Shown in pieces: positions 30,173 through 39,320 of a DNA stretch of 64,000 nucleotides. Within the stretch, counting starts at the first letter, position 1, and each line of letters starts with the position of its first letter. A program made the translations under genes and the position numbers. A model generated the notes under the pieces. That model saw only the letters and a list, made by a program, of their open reading frames with translations. It searched no databases and was not told the origin of the DNA. Source of the stretch: an uncultured Chloroflexia bacterium (GTDB lineage Bacteria; Chloroflexota; Anaerolineae; CG2-30-64-16); NCBI GenBank assembly GCA_963810095.1, contig CAWEMM010000010.1, positions 160,001 through 224,000 of the forward strand, in the 5' to 3' direction.

Positions 30173-31384
30173 TCAGGTCCGGTAGTGCCCGTTGATGTCG
30201 ACGTACGCGTGGCTCAGGTCGCAGGTCCACACCGTCGCACGGCCCTCGCCCAGGCCCAGATCGACCGACACCGCAATCTCGGGCCCGCCGAATACCGCCG
30301 TCGCCGCCTCTTCGGAGTACGGGAGCGGCCGGCCGCCACGGACGAGTTGAATGCGCTCCGCGCCCGAAGGCGCTTCGTCCACGCCCGGCGCGATCCACAG
30401 GTCCGCTTGCGCCGGGTCCACGTGGGCCCCGGAATACCCGACCGCCGCCAGGATGCGGCCCCAGTTGGCGTCGCCGCCGTAGAATGCGGTCTTCACCAGC
30501 GGCGAGTTCGCGACCGCCTTCGCTGCGGTCCGGGCTTCGTTATCGGACGCGGCGCCCGACACCCGAACGGCAATGAACTTCGTCGCACCCTCGCCATCCC
30601 GCACGATCTGCTGCGCCAGGTCGGTGCAGAGCCCGGTGAGCGCTGCGGCGAACGCGTGCTGGTCCACCGCCCCGGCTGCGCCGTTCGCCAGCGCCAGCAC
30701 CGTGTCGTTCGTGCTCATGTCGCCGTCGACGCTGATGCAGTTGAAGCTCACGTCGACTGCGGCGCGCAGCAGGGCGTCGAGCGCCTGCGGCTCGAGCGCC
30801 GCATCGGTCGCGATCACGCTCAACATGGTCGCCATGTTCGGGTGGATCATGCCCGCGCCCTTGGCCATGCCCCAGATGACGGCTTCCCCGACCCGGCGAG
30901 CGGCGACCTTCGGCCGGGTGTCTGTGGTCATGATGGCGTGCGCCGCGGCTGCGGCGCCCTGCGCGGCTGCCGCCGTATCGGACGCCAGGGCGGCTGCTGC
31001 GGCCCGTGCGCCTTCCGCAATCAGGTCCATCGGCAGCCGTGGGCCAATCACGCCGGTCGACATGACCGCAACGGACTTGGCCGGCGCACCAAACGCCGCT
31101 TCGGCCAGCCGGGCCATCTCTGCCGCATCGCTCAGCCCCTCGTCGCCCGTGCACGCATTCGCACAGCCAGAGTTGATTACTACGCCGCGCAGCGCTGAAG
31201 CGTTCCCTACGAGGAGGGCGCGATCGTACAGCACGGGCGCAGCGGGAAACGCGTTTCGGGTAAACGTAGCCGCAGCCGCACACGAGCGGTCGCTTAGCAC
31301 GGCCGCGAAATCCGGTGCGCCGTTCTTCTTGATGCCCGCTGCCACGCCGGCGAAGCGAAAACCGTTAGGAAGGCGCTGCTCCAA
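30173..31384 (-). CDS. argJ: Glutamate N-acetyltransferase / ornithine acetyltransferase
   Basis: NSGCANACTG, KGAGMIHPNMATML, DGDMSTND, DGEGATK, WTCDL motifs. Confidence 0.96.
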   Translation of the reverse strand: MEQRLPNGFRFAGVAAGIKKNGAPDFAAVLSDRSCAAAATFTRNAFPAAPVLYDRALLVGNASALRGVVINSGCANACTGDEGLSDAAEMARLAEAAFGAPAKSVAVMSTGVIGPRLPMDLIAEGARAAAAALASDTAAAAQGAAAAAHAIMTTDTRPKVAARRVGEAVIWGMAKGAGMIHPNMATMLSVIATDAALEPQALDALLRAAVDVSFNCISVDGDMSTNDTVLALANGAAGAVDQHAFAAALTGLCTDLAQQIVRDGEGATKFIAVRVSGAASDNEARTAAKAVANSPLVKTAFYGGDANWGRILAAVGYSGAHVDPAQADLWIAPGVDEAPSGAERIQLVRGGRPLPYSEEAATAVFGGPEIAVSVDLGLGEGRATVWTCDLSHAYVDINGHYRT

Positions 31385-31416
31385 CGAAACCTCCGGTTAT
31401 GGGTAGAACGACGGTC

Positions 31417-31501
31417 AACACAAAGACACGAAGGCACAACGTTTCATGATATATGCTGAATCACTCGCGTGACCCCTTGTGTCTCAGTGCCTTTGTGGTA
31501 A
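31417..31501. repeat. REP-like repeat, family A
   Basis: aacacaaagacacgaaggcacaa...ttgtgtctcagtgcctttgtggt. Confidence 0.75.
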
Positions 31502-31522
31502 CCTCTGGCGTCCAACAGGCGA

Positions 31523-32791
31523 CTAGTCGCGCTTGAACGCCGAATAGTCCGGCGCCTGGTGCTTGCTGCGGCCTGTGCCTTCCACGTCGAGCATCGCCTC
31601 GACCTTCATGGGCAGGCCGAACAGCTTGATGAAGCCCTCCGCGTCCTTCTGGTTGTAGACATCCTCTTCGCCGAAGGTAGCATAATCCTCGCGGTAGAGG
31701 CTGTAGGGCGACTTCCGCCCGACCAGGCTCACGCTCCCCTTGTACAGCTTGAGCCGGGAAGTGCCGGTCACGTGCTTTTGGGTGACGTCGACGAACGCAT
31801 CGAGCGCGCTGCGCAGCGGCGTGAACCACTGGCCGTTGTACACGAGTTCGGCATACTTCAGCGCCAGCATCTGCTTGTACTGCAGCGCCTGCTTGTCCAG
31901 GCAGATCTGTTCCAGCCCTTCGTGCGCCTTGTACAGGATCGTGCCGCCGGGCGTTTCGTACACGCCGCGCGACTTCATGCCCACGAGCCGGTTCTCGACG
32001 ATATCGACCCGGCCCACGCCGTGCTTGCCGCCGATCGCATTGAGCGCCGCGACCAGGTCGATCGGACCCATCGCCTGGCCGTTGACGCGCTTGGGCACGC
32101 CCTGATCGAAGTAGACTTCCACGTACTCCGCCTCGTCAGGGGCGGACTCCGGGCTTTGGGTCAGCTGGAACATGTCTTCCTTGGGCTCGTTCCACGGGTC
32201 CTCGAGCCCGCCGCCCTCGTGGCTCAGGTGCCACAGGTTGCGATCGCGGCTGTAGATCGACTTGATCGTCGCCGTGACCGGAACGTTGTGCTCGGCGGCG
32301 TACTTCAGCGCGTCCTCGCGGCTGCGGATGTGCCACTCGCGCCAGGGAGCGATGATCTTCAGCTTGGGGTTGAGCGCCATGACGGTCAGCTCGAAGCGGA
32401 CCTGGTCGTTGCCCTTGCCCGTGGCGCCGTGCGACACGGCGTCAGCGCCTTCCATGGCAGCGATCTCGACCATCTTCTTCGCGATCAGGGGGCGGGCGAA
32501 GGAGGTGCCGAGAAGGTAATCGCGCTCGTAGATCGCGCCGGCCTTGAGGGTGGGGTAAATGTATTCGGTGATGAACTCCTCGCGCAGGTCATCGATGTAC
32601 AGCTTGCTGGCGCCCGAGGCCAACGCCTTGGCCTCCAGTCCCGACAGCTCTTCTTCCTGGCCGAGGTTGGCGCAGAAGCAGATCACCTCGCAGTCGTAGT
32701 TCTCGACGAGCCACGGGACGATGCACGAGGTGTCGAGCCCGCCCGAATAGGCGAGCACGACTTTCGATACCGACTTCTTAGCAGCGGACAT
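31523..32791 (-). CDS. argG: Argininosuccinate synthase
   Basis: [39 protein letters not shown] motifs. Confidence 0.98.
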
Positions 32792-32816
32792 GAGGTTACT
32801 CCTTGCGTATGATGCC

Positions 32817-32892
32817 TAACACAAAGGCACTAAGACACGAAGTTCCCAGATACTGTTTCCGACCTCTTTGTGTCCTGGTGTCTTTGTGGTGA
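32817..32892. repeat. REP-like repeat, family A
   Basis: taacacaaaggcactaagacac...gtgtcctggtgtctttgtggtga. Confidence 0.75.
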
Positions 32893-32905
32893 AACCCACT
32901 CTTGC

Positions 32906-33931
32906 TTAACGGGAAAGATTGATGACATCGCGCAGCATTGCAGCGGCCGTGGGAACCGGGCCGCGCTCGTCCACCTTGAACTGCTGGAGCCCCATGATGT
33001 CGGTGTCGAATACGATGCCCATCTCCCAGCCCGATACGCTGGCGAGGAAATCGTCTTTCGGCAGCCACTTCGGCTCGACAGAGAAATGGAACCCGTCGCC
33101 GGCCTTCTCGGCCGTGGCGACGAGCTTCACGACCTTGCCCCGGGCCGCGCCCTCTACGATCTGCTCGGGCGTGATGTGGGTGATGCCCTCCAGCGGGCGC
33201 ACGTCGTTGAGCGTGGCCGGGACGCCCAGGATGCTGTTGGCGATGATGACCAGCTTGTTGGCCGTGTCCCACCCTTCCACGTCGAGCGAGGGGTCGGCCT
33301 CGGCAATGCCGTCGAGCTGCGCCTGCTTGAGCGCCTTCCCATAGGTGCCGCCCAGGCTCATGGCTTCGAGAATGGAGTTGCTGGTCGAGTTGAAGATGCC
33401 GCGCAGGCCCCGGATGTCGCAGCCGACGAGGTCGCGCCGCCCGATGTTGACCACCGGCAGCGCGCCGCAGACGGTGGCGCTGTAGGCAAAACCGACCCCC
33501 GCAGCCTGGGCGGCGCCCGTTAGCTCGGCGAACGCCAGCACAAGCGGCGCCTTATTCGCCAGCACCACGCCCATCCCCCGGCCGAGGGCCCGCCGCACGC
33601 AGCTCAGCCCCGGCTCGCCGTCTTTCAGGTTGACGGGCGACGCCTCGAGCAGCAGGTCCGCCGCGACCCGCTCGACCGCCTCCAGCGCCGTATCGAGGGC
33701 TTGTGCGCCGGGGAAGGAAGCGACGCCCTTGCCGCCCTGCTTGTGGGCCAGCAGCGCGTGCGGGTCGATGCCGCCGTTATTGACCACCGCGCCGGAGGAG
33801 TCGGCCGCAGCCGTGAGGACCAGCTCCAGCCCGTACCGATCGGCGAGCAAGCCGGCCTTCTCGTTCATCAGCTGGAGGAACGCCCGGCCGACATTCCCCA
33901 CCCCGATCAGCGCCACTCGGATCTGTTTCAT
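32906..33931 (-). CDS. Homoserine dehydrogenase-like protein inside the arg cluster
   Basis: GVGNVG, VVLANK, ATVCGALP, GIAEADPSLDVEGWDTANK motifs. Confidence 0.88.
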   Translation of the reverse strand: MKQIRVALIGVGNVGRAFLQLMNEKAGLLADRYGLELVLTAAADSSGAVVNNGGIDPHALLAHKQGGKGVASFPGAQALDTALEAVERVAADLLLEASPVNLKDGEPGLSCVRRALGRGMGVVLANKAPLVLAFAELTGAAQAAGVGFAYSATVCGALPVVNIGRRDLVGCDIRGLRGIFNSTSNSILEAMSLGGTYGKALKQAQLDGIAEADPSLDVEGWDTANKLVIIANSILGVPATLNDVRPLEGITHITPEQIVEGAARGKVVKLVATAEKAGDGFHFSVEPKWLPKDDFLASVSGWEMGIVFDTDIMGLQQFKVDERGPVPTAAAMLRDVINLSR

Positions 33932-34005
33932 CCTACCCCCTAACAGCAAACGGCACAAAGCGCACGAAGATCGTTGTGGCCTTCGTGTCTTTGTGTCTGA
34001 AACGC

Positions 34006-34527
34006 CTATGTCCGAACGGCGAAAGCCGGCCGCAGATTGATCATGCCGACCGTTTCTGCCTCGGGCTCGCGCAGATTCATCAGAACCGCGATCTCGTCGC
34101 ACTTGTCGAACTTCGAGCAGTACACGCATTCCTGCCAGATCTTCGGCGTGATCGTCCAGCGGTCGACGGTGGCAAAGCCGCACACGTTGAAGAAGCCTTC
34201 GTTCAGCGTCAGCGCACAGATCTTGTCGTACCCGGCATCGCGCGCCGCGATGACCAGCGCCTCCACCAGCCGCTTCCCCAGCCCCGTCCCGCGGGTCTCG
34301 GGCGCCACGGCCAGCGACCGCAGCTCGGTCAGGCGGGGGGTCAGCGGCACGTTCGACCCGCAGCCGACCACCCTTCCCCCGTGCGTGGCGACCAGGAACC
34401 CCGGCAGCGCCCGGCGAATCTGCTCGGCCGTGCGCGTCAGCATCAGGTCCTGTGCCGCGTAGCCGTTGACCAACCCCAGGATGCCGTCGATGTCGCTCTC
34501 TTTCGCAGCGCGAATGTGAATATCCAT
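34006..34527 (-). CDS. argA: Short GNAT N-acetylglutamate synthase-like acetyltransferase (alternative start 34539)
   Basis: ELRSLAV, GTGLGKRLV, KIWQECVYC...CDEIA motifs; position within the arg cluster. Confidence 0.8.
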   Translation of the reverse strand: MDIHIRAAKESDIDGILGLVNGYAAQDLMLTRTAEQIRRALPGFLVATHGGRVVGCGSNVPLTPRLTELRSLAVAPETRGTGLGKRLVEALVIAARDAGYDKICALTLNEGFFNVCGFATVDRWTITPKIWQECVYCSKFDKCDEIAVLMNLREPEAETVGMINLRPAFAVRT

Positions 34528-34541
34528 GACAAGTCCCATAG

Positions 34542-35756
34542 CTAAAGTTCTGCGAAGACCGCAGTCAGTCGCTCGATCAGCGTGTCGATCTCCGGCAGGC
34601 TGATGATGAGCGGCGGCACCAGCCGCAGCGTGTTCGGCCCCGCATTGACCAGCAGCAGGCCGTGCCGGTAGCCCGCCTGGACCACGTCGTTGGCAGGAAT
34701 GGTCAGGTCGGCGCCGATCATCAGCCCCTTCCCGCGCACCTCGGTGATGCACGGCGAGTTGATCTCTTCCAGGCGTTCCATGAGATACGCGCCCTTCTGG
34801 GTCACGCCTGCCAGGAAGTCGGGTTGATTCACCGTGTCGAGTACGACATTGGCCACGGCTGCGACGAGCGGCGAAGCGGCGAACGTGCTGCCGTGATCGC
34901 CCGGGTGCATGACCTGGGCCACCCGCTCGGTCATTAGCACCGCGCCCATGGGCAGGCCGCCGGCGAGCGGCTTGGCGCTGGTCAGCAGGTCGGGCGTCAC
35001 CCCGTAGCCCTGGTGGGCCCACAGCGTCCCGGTCCGCCCCAGGCCGCACTGGACCTCGTCAAAGATCAAGAGGGCGTCGTGCCGGTCGCACAGGTCGCGC
35101 AGGCCCTGCAGGAACTCGGGCGAGGCCGGGTGTACCCCGCCCTCACCCTGCACCGGCTCCACGATCACTGCGCACACGTCGTCGCCGATGGCATCTGCCG
35201 CGCTCGGCAGGTCGTTGAACTCGGCAAAGCGCACGCCGGGCATCAGGGGCCGGAAGGCCGCCTGGTACTTCTCACGGGGGGTGGCGGCCAGCGCGCCGAA
35301 GGTGCGGCCGTGAAAGGCGTTACTGAACGCGACGATGGCGCTCTTGCCGGAGGACTGCTTGCCGGGACCGGAGGTGTCAGCTTGACCGGCACGGTCATAC
35401 GCCCACTTGCGCGCGAACTTGAACGCGCCCTCGTTGGCCTCGGCCCCCGAGTTGCAGAAAAAGACCCGGTCGGCGAAGCTGCTGCGGCACAGGGCGGCCG
35501 CTAATTGGGCCTGGGGTGCCGTGTGATACAGGTTGGAAACGTGCCAGAGCTTGCCGGCCTGCTCGGCGAGCGCGGCCACGACTGCAGGGTGTGCGTGCCC
35601 TAGCGCGTTTACGGCAATCCCCGCCACGCAGTCGAGGTAGCTGTTGCCTTCGGTGTCATACACCCAGCACCCCTCGCCCCGGTCCAGCACGAAAGGCGGC
35701 CGGGCGTAGGTCTGCAGGACGTGGGCCTGTTCGAGTTCTATCGTGTTATTTGTCAT
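34542..35756 (-). CDS. argD: Acetylornithine aminotransferase
   Basis: GIAVNALGH, NSGAEANE, FHGRT, FDEVQCGLGRTG, AKPLAGG motifs. Confidence 0.95.
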   Translation of the reverse strand: MTNNTIELEQAHVLQTYARPPFVLDRGEGCWVYDTEGNSYLDCVAGIAVNALGHAHPAVVAALAEQAGKLWHVSNLYHTAPQAQLAAALCRSSFADRVFFCNSGAEANEGAFKFARKWAYDRAGQADTSGPGKQSSGKSAIVAFSNAFHGRTFGALAATPREKYQAAFRPLMPGVRFAEFNDLPSAADAIGDDVCAVIVEPVQGEGGVHPASPEFLQGLRDLCDRHDALLIFDEVQCGLGRTGTLWAHQGYGVTPDLLTSAKPLAGGLPMGAVLMTERVAQVMHPGDHGSTFAASPLVAAVANVVLDTVNQPDFLAGVTQKGAYLMERLEEINSPCITEVRGKGLMIGADLTIPANDVVQAGYRHGLLLVNAGPNTLRLVPPLIISLPEIDTLIERLTAVFAEL

Positions 35757-35815
35757 CGTATGTTCCTTCTTCCAGGGCGATGCATCGCTCCCCTGCACGC
35801 CCTGCCGCAGACGCA

Positions 35816-36583
35816 CTATCCCTTGATCACCGCCGTTCCGCCATCGTTAGCCAGGCCGGCCAGGTCGGTAATGACGGCCTGGTACACGCCGCTCTGCACT
35901 GCTTCGGTGGCCGAGCGGACCTTGGGAATCATGCCGCCGGTAATGTGGCCGTCTGCGATGAGGCCGTCGATCTGCTTAACGGTCAGCGCGCGCATGGTCC
36001 GGCCGGTGACCTGTACGCCGGGCACGTTGCTGACGAAGACGAGCTTCACTGCCTCGACCGCCTTCGCGACCCCCGCCGCCACGTGGTCCGCATTGACGTT
36101 GTATCCCAGCCCGTCCTCGCCCAGCGAGACGGGCGAGATGACGGGGGTCAGGCCCAGGTCGAGCAGCTGCAGCAGCGCTTCGCCGTTGACCGCCTGCACC
36201 GCGCCCACCCGGCCCAGGTCGCGGCCGTCGACCGTCAGCGGGGCCACGCGCACGAGGCCCATGTCGACGCCGGATAACCCCAGCGCATCCACGCCCCCGT
36301 TGACGAGGTGGCGCACCAGCCGGGTGTTGACGACGCCGTTCAGCACCATCTCGACGAGCCGCAGGCTTTCGACCGACGTGGCGCGCAGCCCTTCGACGGT
36401 CTCGAAGCTCACGCCGAGCTGGCCGTGCAGGTCGGCGATTTCCTTGCCGCCGCCGTGAACCACGATCACGGCATAGTCGGCCAGGAGGGACTTCACGGCT
36501 GCGACAAAGCCCGTCAGGAACGCTTCATCTTCAACCTGGTTGCCGCCGATCTTGAGGACCAGCACATGTTTTTCGTTCGGCAT
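35816..36583 (-). CDS. argB: Acetylglutamate kinase
   Basis: LKIGG, VHGGG, YNVNAD, GGMIPK motifs. Confidence 0.95.
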   Translation of the reverse strand: MPNEKHVLVLKIGGNQVEDEAFLTGFVAAVKSLLADYAVIVVHGGGKEIADLHGQLGVSFETVEGLRATSVESLRLVEMVLNGVVNTRLVRHLVNGGVDALGLSGVDMGLVRVAPLTVDGRDLGRVGAVQAVNGEALLQLLDLGLTPVISPVSLGEDGLGYNVNADHVAAGVAKAVEAVKLVFVSNVPGVQVTGRTMRALTVKQIDGLIADGHITGGMIPKVRSATEAVQSGVYQAVITDLAGLANDGGTAVIKG

Positions 36584-36634
36584 GGTTCTTTCCTCGGGGA
36601 ACATCCACGCGCGCGCACTGCGCCGCCGTGCCCG

Positions 36635-37669
36635 CTACAGCAGCGCGAGCTTCTCGTCGCAGCCGAGCATGATGTTCATGTTCTGCACTGCCTGACCCGC
36701 CGCGCCCTTGATCAGGTTGTCGATGGCGGCCGTCACGATCAGCAGGTTCGTGCCCGGCACAAACGTCAGCCCGATGGCGCAGAAGTTGGTGTGCACCGCA
36801 TGGGCCAGCGTCGCCACCTGGCCCGGCTTCAGCAGGTGGACGAACGGCTCGAACTCGTACGCCTCGACGTATGCCTCGCGCACCTGCGCTTCCGTCACGC
36901 CGGCCGGCAGATTGACATAAATAGTAGAGAGGATGCCCCGGTTGACGGGCAGGAGGTGGGGCGAGAAGACGACCTGCAGAGGCGCGGCCCCGTTCGTGGG
37001 GCCCACCAGCAGGCCCAGCTCCTGCTCCATCTCGGCCAGGTGCCGGTGCGTGCGGCCGATGCTATACGGGCTCATGTTCTCGTTCGCTTCGACGAAATGC
37101 GTCTTGAGCGACGGCGACCGGCCCGCGCCCGAGATGCCCGACTTGCTGTCGGCGATGACGGTGCCGTGCAGCCAGCCCGCCTGAGCCAGCGGCGCGAGGC
37201 CGAGGATCACGCTCGTGGGATAGCAGCCGGGATTCGCCACCAGGTTTGCGGCGCCGATCTCGTCCCGGTGCAGCTCGGGGAGGCCGTAGACCGCCTCGGC
37301 CAGCGCTTCGGGCTCCATGTGCCCGTGGCCGTACCAGGCTTCGTAAGCCTGGGCGTCGTGGATCCGGTAGTCGGCGCTGAGGTCGACGACCCGTGCGCCC
37401 GCCCGCCGGGCCGCTGCGACAGGCCCCTGGGCGGCCACGTGGGGCAGGCAGCAGAAAACCACGTCGGCGCCCGCCAGGTCGGCATCTTCGGCACGCACCA
37501 GGATCTCTTCGCCAAGGAACGGCGGCACGGGGAACACGTCGCCGAAACGCTGGCCGGCCGAGTTCTCGGAGGTGAGCCAGGCGATCTCGGTCGCCGGATG
37601 GCGTGCGAGAATCTTCAGCAGTTCCAACCCGGTATAGCCCGTTGCACCGATGATGCCGATCTTGACCAT
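36635..37669 (-). CDS. argC: N-acetyl-gamma-glutamyl-phosphate reductase
   Basis: GATGYTG, DLSADYR, ANPGCYPT, SGISGAG, DNLIKGAAGQAVQN motifs. Confidence 0.97.
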   Translation of the reverse strand: MVKIGIIGATGYTGLELLKILARHPATEIAWLTSENSAGQRFGDVFPVPPFLGEEILVRAEDADLAGADVVFCCLPHVAAQGPVAAARRAGARVVDLSADYRIHDAQAYEAWYGHGHMEPEALAEAVYGLPELHRDEIGAANLVANPGCYPTSVILGLAPLAQAGWLHGTVIADSKSGISGAGRSPSLKTHFVEANENMSPYSIGRTHRHLAEMEQELGLLVGPTNGAAPLQVVFSPHLLPVNRGILSTIYVNLPAGVTEAQVREAYVEAYEFEPFVHLLKPGQVATLAHAVHTNFCAIGLTFVPGTNLLIVTAAIDNLIKGAAGQAVQNMNIMLGCDEKLALL

Positions 37670-37745
37670 ATCTAGCTCCACTGGTTCCAAATCCTGACTG
37701 GCCCGTTGCCTGGGCCCTGCCGGCGCGTGAACGGCCAGGCACAAC

Positions 37746-37795
37746 AAAAAACCAGCACGCGGGCCGGGTGCTCACCCGGGCCTGGGTGCTGGTTT
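37746..37795 (-). terminator. Intrinsic terminator (attenuator) in the arg leader
   Basis: Minus strand AAACCAGCAC...CCGGGT-GAGC-ACCCGG...GTGCTGG followed by TTTTTT, between the promoter and argC. Confidence 0.85.
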
Positions 37796-37845
37796 GCCTA
37801 GTTCTGTCGTAGACGTTCGGCTCGCGCGCTCCTGCGGACCGGGTG

Positions 37846-37899
37846 CTAACCCGCTCTGATAAGGATACGACGACGAGGGAAGCGAAGGCTGATAGCCAA
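37846..37899 (-). CDS. Putative Arg-rich leader peptide MAISLRFPRRRILIRAG
   Basis: RBS GGAG, 5-nt spacer, TTG start; 5 Arg codons including CGT-CGT-CGT and AGA; TAG about 50 nt before the terminator. Confidence 0.7.
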   Translation of the reverse strand: MAISLRFPRRRILIRAG

Positions 37900-37994
37900 T
37901 GTAACTCCGAACGCTTCAATATGATGCGGGCGATGGGTGACTCGCAAAGTCACACGCCATCCGCAGGATGGCGCACCCTCTTTTGACGGACGGG

Positions 37995-38024
37995 AGTTTA
38001 GCATAGGTCGCGAGCGGTTGTCAA
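37995..38024 (-). promoter_or_regulatory. Promoter of the arg operon
   Basis: Minus strand TTGACA-N18-TAAACT with extended TG. Confidence 0.7.
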
Positions 38025-38082
38025 ACTTGGAGGTTCTGCGTAACCATACCGGTCTGACCGCTATCCCTGGCACGGGCCAGGT

Positions 38083-38722
38083 GTTGCAGTGTTGCAGTGT
38101 TGACGGAGGGGGTAACCGGAGAATTAATTCCCAGGCTCGCAGGGTTCGGCAAGACGGTGCGCTCTACGGCCAGGGGTTGCAGGGTTGGCGTACAAACGGA
38201 GGGCGTCTCGCATTGTTAATTCTACTGGTTTAGCGATCATCAGGCTTTTCTGTTGGCTGGAATAAGAAGATCCAGGTCAGCTAGGGATTCAGGCGATCTT
38301 ACCCTTCTTCAGCCGGCAACCTCCCCAGGTGATCCGCCAGGTCGTGCACATTTAGTATATTCATCCCTGCGCCATCCAAGTCCTCGCACACCGCAGTCGC
38401 GATCCAGCCTGTTGCCGCCAACTCGTCCCAATCGAAGCCCATGACCCATTCCTGTAGTGTATCGGCGTTCCAGATGTCTACCACTGAGCCGTCCAGATCC
38501 TCTAGCATCTTCATGATCTTGACGCCGTTCATCCAAACCTCCTCCCAAAGCTGACAAGTCAACCCGCCTGGCTAGAAGGCGAATTCCGGCTGTTCCAGTA
38601 CCGTCGGCGGCGCTCAGCCCCTTCACGCCACGCACTCTCGCGTCTGGCCTGCGCTGCGAGCCCCGCGGACCCCGGAATTAATTCGTCGGTTACCCCCTCC
38701 GTCAACACTGCAACACTGCAAC
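38083..38722. mobile_element. Segment bounded by 49-bp inverted repeats (non-autonomous element, remnant or invertible segment)
   Basis: 38083-38131 and 38674-38722 match at 47/49 as inverted repeats; interior looks more AT-rich; no transposase. Confidence 0.55.
38299..38532 (-). CDS. Small acidic hypothetical protein (77 aa)
   Basis: Strong RBS GGAGGAGG before ATG; open frame inside the IR-bounded segment. Confidence 0.6.
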   Translation of the reverse strand: MNGVKIMKMLEDLDGSVVDIWNADTLQEWVMGFDWDELAATGWIATAVCEDLDGAGMNILNVHDLADHLGRLPAEEG

Positions 38723-38741
38723 CCTGCTCGTCGCCCTCCAC

Positions 38742-39320
38742 CTAGCGCTGATGCTCGCGGCGTAACAGCCCGTAGTGCAGGGTCCCGGTAATGCTCCCAT
38801 CCGGCCAGAGGTGGTTCTCGCGGATGTGGCCCTCCAGCGTGAACCCGCAGCGCTCGGCGACGCGGGCACTCCGCTCGTTCGTGTCGTCGCATTCGAGCCG
38901 CACGCGATGCGCGCCGAGTTGGCCGAACAGGAACGGCAGGACCCCTCGCACCGCCTCGCTCACGTACCCCTGCCCCTCGTGATCGACGTCGGCGATGAAA
39001 CCGACCTCGAACTCGGGCAGGTCGGGGTTGGCGACGCCAACATAGATTTGGGCCACGAATTCACCTGAGGCATGCAGGAACGCGCCGAGGAAGAAGGCCT
39101 TGCCCGCAACCCAAGAGGCGGCGAATTCGCTCATCACATGTGCGGCATCTTCTTCGGTCGCGATGGTTGTGATCGGGTTGCCGGCTTCGAACTTGCCGAG
39201 GTGGGCCTTGTTGCGGAGGCTCATCGCGCAGTACCAGGGTGCGTCGCCCGGCTCGTACGCCCGGAGCAAAAGACGCTCGGTCGTGATGCGTGTTGCGGGA
39301 TCGGGGATGGGGAAGGGCAC
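38742..39320 (-). CDS. GNAT acetyltransferase (RimJ/RimL-like)
   Basis: TERLLLR, GQGYVSEA, NERSARVAERCGFTLEG motifs. Confidence 0.9.
   Translation of the reverse strand: MPFPIPDPATRITTERLLLRAYEPGDAPWYCAMSLRNKAHLGKFEAGNPITTIATEEDAAHVMSEFAASWVAGKAFFLGAFLHASGEFVAQIYVGVANPDLPEFEVGFIADVDHEGQGYVSEAVRGVLPFLFGQLGAHRVRLECDDTNERSARVAERCGFTLEGHIRENHLWPDGSITGTLHYGLLRREHQR

Follow-up and report, generated by a model that had tools for sequence, protein, structure and literature searches.

The window analyzed here is a 64,000-nt stretch of DNA from an uncultured Chloroflexia bacterium (assembly GCA_963810095.1, contig CAWEMM010000010.1), and it carries a cluster of arginine biosynthesis genes that includes argC, argB, and argD. 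All coordinates given below are positions in this window, and the leader and the genes argC, argB, argD, argG, and argJ lie on its minus strand. Between a promoter-like site and the start of argC is an RNA leader with a short upstream open reading frame (uORF) rich in arginine codons, followed by an intrinsic terminator. We consider this element very likely to be a leader-peptide attenuator of transcription, which would depend on the ribosome, sense charged tRNA-Arg, and control argC-argB-argD. We base this reading on the anatomy of the locus, its conservation, the coding signature of the ORF, the closed RNA structure, the terminator, the linkage to arg genes, and searches that found no ArgR.

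The features of the locus are collected in Table 1. A promoter scan scored the site TTGACA-18-TAAACT at 10/12 matches, with TG ahead of the -10 element. It is the sole promoter-like site within 2 kb (1 versus 0.4 expected from shuffles), and both hexamers are kept in the alignment of relatives. The arginine codons of the leader ORF are CGC (37884-82), three consecutive CGT codons (37875-37867), and AGA (37857-55). Folding predicts the terminator as a long G+C-rich hairpin (37795-37750), which is also seen as an inverted repeat with 20-nt arms that are 85% complementary; a simple terminator scan detected only its inner part. The argC ATG at 37669 lies 76 nt past the T-run. A preliminary description of this DNA, prepared from the letters alone, had listed the promoter, the GGAG, the 17-codon TTG ORF, the CGT triplet, the terminator, a direct repeat, and the spacing to argC, and we located every one of these where it had been placed.

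The 251-nt leader folds better than shuffled sequences (z = -3.16), with 1 of 200 shuffles equally good. An Rfam 15 scan of positions 37000-39000 with E values up to 10 yielded only chance-level matches, none of them on the leader, and no family, be it T-box or any known riboswitch, matched the leader strand. The leader is single copy in the host genome, where an nhmmer profile matches the argC site only. When one mismatch was allowed, a leader pattern gave 14 matches in this genome compared to 8 for a reversed control, and the argC site alone was exact.

Table 1. Features of the argC leader and the neighboring arg genes
Feature	Positions	Strand	Description
Promoter	37995..38024	minus	-35 TTGACA at 38024-38019, 18-nt spacer, extended -10 TGcTAAACT at 38003-37995
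Conserved 5' transcript block	37976..37985	minus	CAAAAGAGGG in the host genome, CAAAAGAUGG in most relatives (alignment)
Variable 5' hairpin region	37937..37974	minus	two predicted hairpins in the host genome
Host version of conserved block CCAGAAGCAUA	37920..37930	minus	from alignments of relatives
Helix arm A, GCGUUCGG	37907..37914	minus	pairs with A' (37813-37820); overlaps the first two Shine-Dalgarno bases
Shine-Dalgarno GGAG of leader ORF	37905..37908	minus	5 nt before the TTG at 37899
Leader ORF, MAISLRFPRRRILIRAG	37846..37899	minus	17 codons plus TAG (37848-46); TTG start at 37899
Regulatory Arg codons CGT CGT CGT	37867..37875	minus	codons 9-11 of the leader
Hairpin H2, CGGGU-UAGC-ACCCG	37840..37853	minus	stop codon in the loop of the predicted fold
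Segment Z, CACCCGGUCCGCAGG	37831..37845	minus	3' arm of H2 and next bases; candidate antiterminator strand
B', AGCGCGCGAG	37821..37830	minus	partner of Pro-Arg codons CCU CGU CGU CGU
A', CCGAACGU	37813..37820	minus	partner of A
Conserved spacer, CUACGACAGAAC UAGGC	37796..37812	minus	from alignments of relatives
Intrinsic terminator	37746..37795	minus	5' arm AACCAGCACCC, apex, 3' arm GUGCUGGUU, U6 at 37751-37746
17-nt insertion in terminator	37756..37772	minus	specific to the host genome; copy of the leader stop-codon region
argC (N-acetyl-gamma-glutamyl-phosphate reductase)	36635..37669	minus	TIGR01850, 389 bits; first gene past the terminator
argB	35816..36604	minus	TIGR00761
argD	34542..35816	minus	TIGR00707
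GNAT acetyltransferase	34006..34527	minus	173 aa; Pfam PF00583, PF13508; between argD and the homoserine-dehydrogenase-like gene
Homoserine-dehydrogenase-like gene	within 30173..34527	minus	between the GNAT gene and argG
argG	31523..32791	minus	same strand as argC
argJ	30173..31384	minus	same strand as argC

Conservation of the element was examined with a covariance model (R1) built from the argC leaders of 24 relatives. The model finds one full-length leader in 34 of 37 genomes of the host family, always just upstream of argC, and the three genomes that lack a match are 63-76% complete. The preliminary description had proposed to look for an Arg-rich uORF and a terminator ahead of argC in relatives; both are conserved in these 34 genomes, together with the Shine-Dalgarno (SD) sequence and the stop-codon hairpin, and each comparative check that it had suggested turned out in its favor. 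Searching at the order level adds nothing because the order consists of the same 37 genomes. The distance from the terminator to argC ranges from 14 to 188 nt in 24 family loci, and the sequence and length of the 5' hairpin region (37937..37974) differ among relatives. Another 34 loci were added by scanning metagenomes with a pattern taken from the noncoding part only, which is hence blind to the ORF. Since the pattern demanded that the A'-spacer block and the terminator arm match exactly, the diversity recovered is limited. In total, the leader is present in 78 of 94 loci, representing 45 distinct sequences. One genome (G043) has two full-length leader copies on two contigs (C14:10126-10292 and C15:5248-5414), which could reflect duplication, strain heterogeneity, or contamination. 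Among the matches listed in a search of genome contigs, the relatives of argC are distant only, with 40-57% identity.

The pattern of variation in the ORF is that of a coding sequence. The SD sequence GGAG is invariant in 24 of 24 sequences and lies 5-10 nt from the start codon in all 45 distinct leaders, which begin with GTG (29), TTG (11), or ATG (5). The peptide core L-R-F-P-R-R-R is kept across the 45 sequences. The Arg before Phe is retained in every leader by four synonymous codons (CGA 18, CGC 17, CGT 8, CGG 2), as are Phe (TTC 30, TTT 15) and Pro (CCT 34, CCC 8, CCG 3). Likewise, Leu is kept in 39 and Ala in 40 of the 45 sequences, each by four codons. Insertions of 3, 15, 30, or 45 nt occur between A-F-S-L and R-F-P-R-R-R, and the frame is always kept. 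Residues past the Arg run vary freely, and most leaders end in Gly, for which each of the four possible codons occurs. Because the core survives synonymous changes, in-frame insertions, and three different start codons, its sequence record indicates that the leader ORF is translated.

Codon choice within the arginine run is more restricted than at neighboring positions. The run is R-R-R in 41 of the 45 sequences and R-P-R or R-A-R in the other four. CGT occupies the three positions in 41, 41, and 44 of the 45 sequences, respectively, while adjacent codons drift synonymously. This is a minor codon in the host genome (65% G+C), where 1,028 long ORFs use CGT for 12% and CGC for 41% of arginines. 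The tRNA-Arg anticodons that ARAGORN identified in this genome are GCG, CCG, UCG, CCU (two), and UCU. ARAGORN did not find tRNA-Arg(ACG), the usual inosine-forming arginine tRNA of bacteria; as the assembly is 88.5% complete, the gene may simply be missing from it. If the tRNA set is complete, CGU would be read solely by G:U wobble from tRNA-Arg(GCG). A repeated, slowly read minor codon would be expected of a sensor of tRNA charging.

The leader can also close upon itself. RNAalifold supports the terminator and a long-range helix of ACGUUCGG with CCGAACGU (A:A'), in which four of six pairs have compensatory changes. The entire ORF lies inside this helix, whose arm A extends into the SD sequence. 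We then scored the pairing of the Pro-Arg codons with GCGCGCGAG (B'), hairpin H2, and the terminator together as a closed state over 43 distinct rows. In this test, 92.3% of cells are paired compared to 26-47% in slid controls, double changes occur in 15 cells versus 5.3 expected, and the covariation score is higher than that of 500 of 500 shuffles. The covariation that the preliminary description had proposed to look for in relatives is therefore present in the closed structure, along with coding-type variation. The Pro-Arg codons pair with B' in 90% of cells, and pair 14-72 of this helix switches among UA (22), UG (7), and CG (6). H2 is paired in 82% of cells over the same number of rows, with GGG/CCC changed to CGG/CCG in some sequences. 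The terminator has an 11-bp stem followed by a U-tract; in its two helices, 97-99% of cells are paired, and the base of the stem shows compensatory changes. When cognate duplexes were compared to noncognate ones, H2 and the terminator each gave a small signal, and the pairing of the Pro-Arg codons with B' (B:B') gave none. In every variant, the stop codon lies in the loop of H2 or, in longer variants, at most about 15 nt past H2. Therefore, a terminating ribosome would always cover the adjacent segment Z.

These features suggest the following mechanism. Transcription would start at the strong sigma-70-type promoter, and a ribosome would translate the 16-17-codon leader with its minor codon repeated as CGU CGU CGU. 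When no ribosome is present, the leader is predicted to close itself, with A:A' around the ORF, the Pro-Arg codons paired with GCGCGCGAG, and the stop codon in H2. In this closed leader, the 11-bp G+C-rich terminator and its U-tract would stop RNA polymerase ahead of argC. With plentiful Arg-tRNA, a ribosome at the stop codon would cover Z (CACCCGGUC..GGG), and the terminator would likewise form. When Arg-tRNA is scarce, the ribosome would stall on the CGU run, the closed structure would open, and Z would be freed. Free Z could then pair with the last three bases of the 5' arm, the loop, and the first five bases of the 3' arm of the terminator. This pairing would block the hairpin and allow polymerase to read into argC.

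The candidate antiterminator strand is segment Z. After the stop codon, it reads CACCC-GGUC-nn-GGG and is complementary to the top of the terminator: its GGG faces the last CCC of the 5' arm, its GGUC faces GACC in the loop, and its CACCC faces GGGUG of the 3' arm. The conserved terminator loop would be explained because GGUC pairs with the loop GACC. All 45 sequences are complementary in this way, with a mean Z:apex duplex energy of -17.1 kcal/mol compared to -5.7 and -7.9 kcal/mol for control segment pairs, and 87% of cells are paired versus 20-56% when the strands are slid. Single compensations also fit this pairing: GAUC:GAUC (L018), GGUU:AAUC (L158), and U.G (L001-3). The 3' half of the Z:apex helix can form before the 3' arm of the terminator is made. 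Once the helix is complete, residual terminator pairs could persist only within a pseudoknot that is sterically impossible. An alternative register, pairing the GGG that follows Z with UUCCC from the Phe-Pro codons, fits only a few sequences and was dropped. Separately, Z and its 3' neighbors (37824-37845) form a 22-nt inverted repeat, 77% complementary, with the first 5' hairpin (37953-37974). Similar complementarity occurs in the two closest relatives and none further out.

The preliminary description had reached its antiterminator by a different route. It had noted that 20 nt spanning the stop codon (37853-37834) are repeated in the terminator (37778-37759) with 90% identity (18/20), and had proposed that CACCCGG near the stop codon pairs with CCGGGUG as the terminator 5' arm. 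The repeat exists because a 17-nt insertion (37772-37756) copies the leader stop-codon region. This insertion occurs in the host genome only, one of the 45 distinct sequences. In relatives, CCGGGUG is the loop end and 3' arm rather than the 5' arm. The broader idea of a strand that competes with the terminator holds as far as complementarity is concerned (the 87% of cells and -17.1 kcal/mol given above), but covariation does not support the pairing, and the terminator state is more stable by about 12 kcal/mol.

A further line of evidence concerns ArgR, the repressor that typically controls bacterial arg operons. Absence of argR from the window had already been noted, and TIGR01529 was not found in the whole host assembly, which is 88.5% complete, or in any of the 37 host-family genomes, 16 of which are at least 90% complete. 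As a control, the same model matches in 9 of 14 reference genomes. Control through an ArgR operator presupposes an ArgR gene, which was not found in the host genome or the host family.

To gauge how widely such leaders occur, we searched 161 genomes of the class, 90 of which have a close argC (E value of 1e-80 or better). Upstream regions of argC from outside the host family were examined at 82 loci, 76 of them retrieved for this survey and six taken from the comparison of argC relatives; three partial matches were left out. A region was counted when it contained a uORF of 6-45 codons with at least three Arg in five residues, followed by a T-run 15-130 nt after the uORF and within 150 nt of argC. 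This arrangement is found in 39 of the 82 regions, spread over 18 of 29 families, compared to 1 of 82 reverse complements and a mean of 1.75 (maximum 4) of 82 regions in 20 dinucleotide shuffles. The leaders of these other families differ in sequence, and Arg runs are common to them, often with Pro nearby. Lineages often each repeat one minor codon three times (AGG, CGA, or CGT). The 167 Arg codons in these uORFs comprise AGG (47), CGC (44), CGT (37), CGA (19), CGG (16), and AGA (4). One family (f14) keeps x-A-F-I-R-F-P-R-I-R-R while its terminator and remaining RNA differ. Visual inspection of one f14 locus revealed the classical geometry, with the 5' arm of the terminator matched by a complementary strand within the ORF. 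The attenuator is not universal in the class because argC of L023 (f17) and L025 (f11) directly follows another coding gene and has no leader and no terminator.

Families f8 and f37 (L021, L195-L197, L199, L201) share a common argC leader of their own, with the peptide ..S-P-R-S-P-R-R.. encoded with AGG codons and a conserved terminator (CUCUCC-AGGC-GGAGAG-U7). Chance translation of a terminator of this type produces a spurious 'LSRRRAF' ORF, which is also seen in families f40 and f45.

RNA libraries contain pieces of such leaders. No sequencing run contained half of the sampled sequence words. Four RNA libraries were compared using contigs only; two gave nothing, and two, from soil samples, contain pieces at least 88% like the leader. 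Library X18 has pieces on the leader and on argC that derive from relatives, and its missing coverage at 37705-37785 proves nothing. In library X15, one contig bridges the terminator in a relative that lacks exactly the 17-nt insert of the host.

Several observations weigh against the attenuator reading, beginning with the antiterminator step. Covariation of Z:apex is not above chance, as 201 of 500 shuffles reach its score, and cognate pairs of Z and terminator are no better than noncognate pairs (-17.14 versus -17.01 kcal/mol). Masking the Arg codons with a ribosome still leaves the terminator state favored by an average of 12.2 kcal/mol (range 3.1-18.0), as scored in 42 of the 45 sequences. 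The preliminary description had looked to masked and unmasked folds for a switch, and the terminator forms in all minimum-energy folds, with masks at the Arg or stop codons and with full or truncated transcripts; these folds give its 5' arm no consistent alternative partner. Furthermore, Z leaves the base of the terminator 5' arm free, and a ribosome stalled at the third CGU would reach just 9-10 nt beyond it and may not open H2 directly. We infer stalling at the Arg codons, the role of Z as antiterminator, and the direction of the response; the lack of covariation and a stability below that of the terminator state keep the antiterminator step at this level.

Other points against this reading concern conservation that it does not need. 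All 45 sequences have an identical terminator 5' arm, CCAGCACCC (37784-37792), but a variable 3' partner with five mismatching variants, which hints that the 5' arm has another partner. No convincing partner was found for it among nine leader segments; the best candidate, a strand of the 5' hairpin, reaches -7.7 kcal/mol compared to -6.7 kcal/mol for shuffled arms. Two conserved 5' blocks (CAAAAGAUGG and CCAGAAGCAUA) and the preterminator spacer (GUCUAAGACAGAU..AGGC) lie outside the attenuator model, and the conservation of A-F-S-L-R-F-P at the amino acid level exceeds what a purely codon-counting attenuator needs. Finally, all source genomes are uncultured assemblies, and the RNA-library contigs show that the leader occurs, with its starts, ends, and regulation beyond their reach.

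The surplus of peptide conservation would fit an arrest-peptide sensor. In such a sensor, the nascent M-A-F-S-L-R-F-P, followed by R-R-R and a terminal Gly before the stop codon, would act in the ribosome tunnel, and the Arg codons would then not be the whole sensor. The peptide could make bond formation with Arg-tRNA unusually slow, or it could bind free arginine and hold the ribosome at the stop codon such that, at high arginine, Z is covered and the terminator forms. In keeping with this, synonymous codons preserve the Leu, Arg, Phe, and Pro before the run in 39-45 of the 45 sequences and later residues vary, f14 retains its similar peptide despite a different terminator and RNA, and the last residue is mostly Gly by all four Gly codons. 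With the Arg codons in the A site, the conserved octapeptide would also occupy the upper tunnel. We nevertheless regard an arrest peptide as unlikely, since the feature common to the class is the Arg run and not a fixed peptide motif, and the C-terminal residues nearest the peptidyl-transferase center at the stop codon are variable. In addition, RNA pairing may cause part of the conservation, through the pairing of the Pro-Arg codons with B' and the position of the Gly codon in H2. A combined sensor, in which the octapeptide M-A-F-S-L-R-F-P in the tunnel tunes or gates the response of the ribosome as a wobble-read CGU enters the A site, and thereby sharpens the dependence on Arg-tRNA or binds free arginine, has a small but real chance of being correct. 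If so, the operon would be set by free arginine together with tRNA charging, in a class with RNA-level control replacing ArgR, and an additional partner interaction would involve the invariant 5' arm of the terminator as well as the conserved 5' blocks.

The conserved RNA outside the ORF could instead be read as a riboswitch-like leader, whose binding of a protein or small ligand controls the terminator and for which translation of the small ORF is auxiliary. About 200 nt are conserved, including CAAAAGAUGG, CCAGAAGCAUA, GUCUAAGACAGAU, and AGGC, which an attenuator does not need; the motif AGCA recurs in three conserved blocks; and the invariant terminator 5' arm lacks a matching constraint on the 3' arm. 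Set against these points are the clear coding constraints and in-frame insertions in the ORF, the lack of any Rfam match (T-box and known riboswitches included), and the fact that no candidate regulator gene is linked to the element. Moreover, the unrelated leaders of other families share only the Arg-rich ORF and the terminator. Taken together, we consider a ligand- or protein-binding leader quite improbable. Scarcely credible is the view that the hairpin merely terminates or insulates upstream transcription and that the ORF is a chance occurrence or an independent micro-gene unlinked to argC. Chance Arg-rich short ORFs are indeed common in G+C-rich DNA, appearing in 25 of 82 reverse-complement controls if the terminator requirement is dropped, but an ORF together with a terminator is found in 39 of 82 argC regions compared to 1 of 82 controls, and the element is always linked to argC. 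Because the conserved promoter immediately upstream points at argC, the terminator lies inside the argC transcription unit.

The attenuator probably also governs the arg genes downstream of argC-argB-argD on the same strand. The GNAT gene in this series is possibly a short N-acetylglutamate synthase; its ORF (34006-34527) sits inside a longer, out-of-context entry of the ORF list (34006-35049). The argH gene is further along in the window, and argF is on a different contig of the assembly. The upstream regions of argF, argH, and argG in the host genome contain no comparable leader. In G009, G015, G017, G018, G041, and G075, which represent several genera, argC matches in two pieces (approximately residues 1-223 and 229-343) that lie in one longer open frame of 400-460 aa, a pattern that points to inserted sequence within argC.

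Textbooks present arginine biosynthesis as the standard example of control by a repressor (ArgR) and leader-peptide attenuation as the way in which trp, his, leu, thr, phe, and ilv are regulated. By analogy, the element would work like the trp, his, and leu attenuators. The enterobacterial trp, his, leu, thr, pheA, and ilv attenuators have a promoter, a translated leader with a run of codons for the end product, a stop codon positioned such that a terminating ribosome covers one strand of an alternative pairing, and an intrinsic terminator before the first biosynthetic gene, and their untranslated leaders are closed and terminate. The present element shares this design, with a candidate alternative pairing and predicted termination of the closed leader. 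The control codons of the leu leader are also a minor codon. The element described here differs in that the amino acid is arginine, that the candidate antiterminator meets the terminator apex and not the whole 5' arm, and that the ORF is enclosed in a long-range helix that extends into the SD sequence. Furthermore, the peptide ahead of the control codons is conserved at the amino acid level, and the host belongs to a Chloroflexota-like lineage in which ArgR was not found. For the fungal arginine attenuator peptide (the arg-2/CPA1 uORF), TnaC, and SpeFL, the signal is a free metabolite sensed inside the tunnel, and stalling occurs at the stop codon or close to it. They resemble the present element in design in that a short conserved upstream peptide governs an arginine-related gene through the ribosome. 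In contrast to these peptides, the Arg-codon run points to tRNA charging as the signal, and the readout is an intrinsic terminator.

The preliminary description had known of no leader-peptide attenuator for arginine biosynthesis. Our literature search agrees and found none, with subscription-only comparative genomics papers on attenuation lying outside its coverage; the term 'arginine attenuator' surfaced in it only in work on yeast. Term look-ups, which reach only parts of each text, gave no arginine-biosynthesis attenuator in Naville & Gautheret 2010 (PMC2965389) or Korolev et al. 2016 (PMC4833913). A precedent for the sensing step is orf34 of Salmonella speF. When arginine is low, the ribosome is reported to pause there at consecutive Arg codons, which decides between alternative mRNA structures (Ben-Zvi et al. 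2019, PMC6386406). Pausing at Arg codons in an upstream ORF thus selects the mRNA structure in both cases if our reading is correct. Unlike the present element, orf34 controls ornithine decarboxylase, has two Arg codons in a 34-codon ORF, and acts through Rho-dependent termination, unfolding of the ribosome binding site, and RNase G decay, not an intrinsic terminator (PMC6386406).

If the element is an attenuator, as we consider very likely, then attenuation would govern arginine synthesis in a whole bacterial family in which no ArgR was detected, with analogous elements present in no fewer than 18 of the 29 other families sampled from this class. Confirmation would add arginine to the amino acids whose synthesis is controlled by attenuators, and annotators would gain an RNA/uORF family to place before argC. 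The leader would also offer a compact natural system for studying how the sensitivity of a ribosome-based sensor depends on codon choice, here three copies of a minor codon read by wobble, and what a conserved nascent peptide adds to such sensing. For the organisms themselves, it would explain how the arginine pathway is regulated in abundant, mostly uncultured bacteria.

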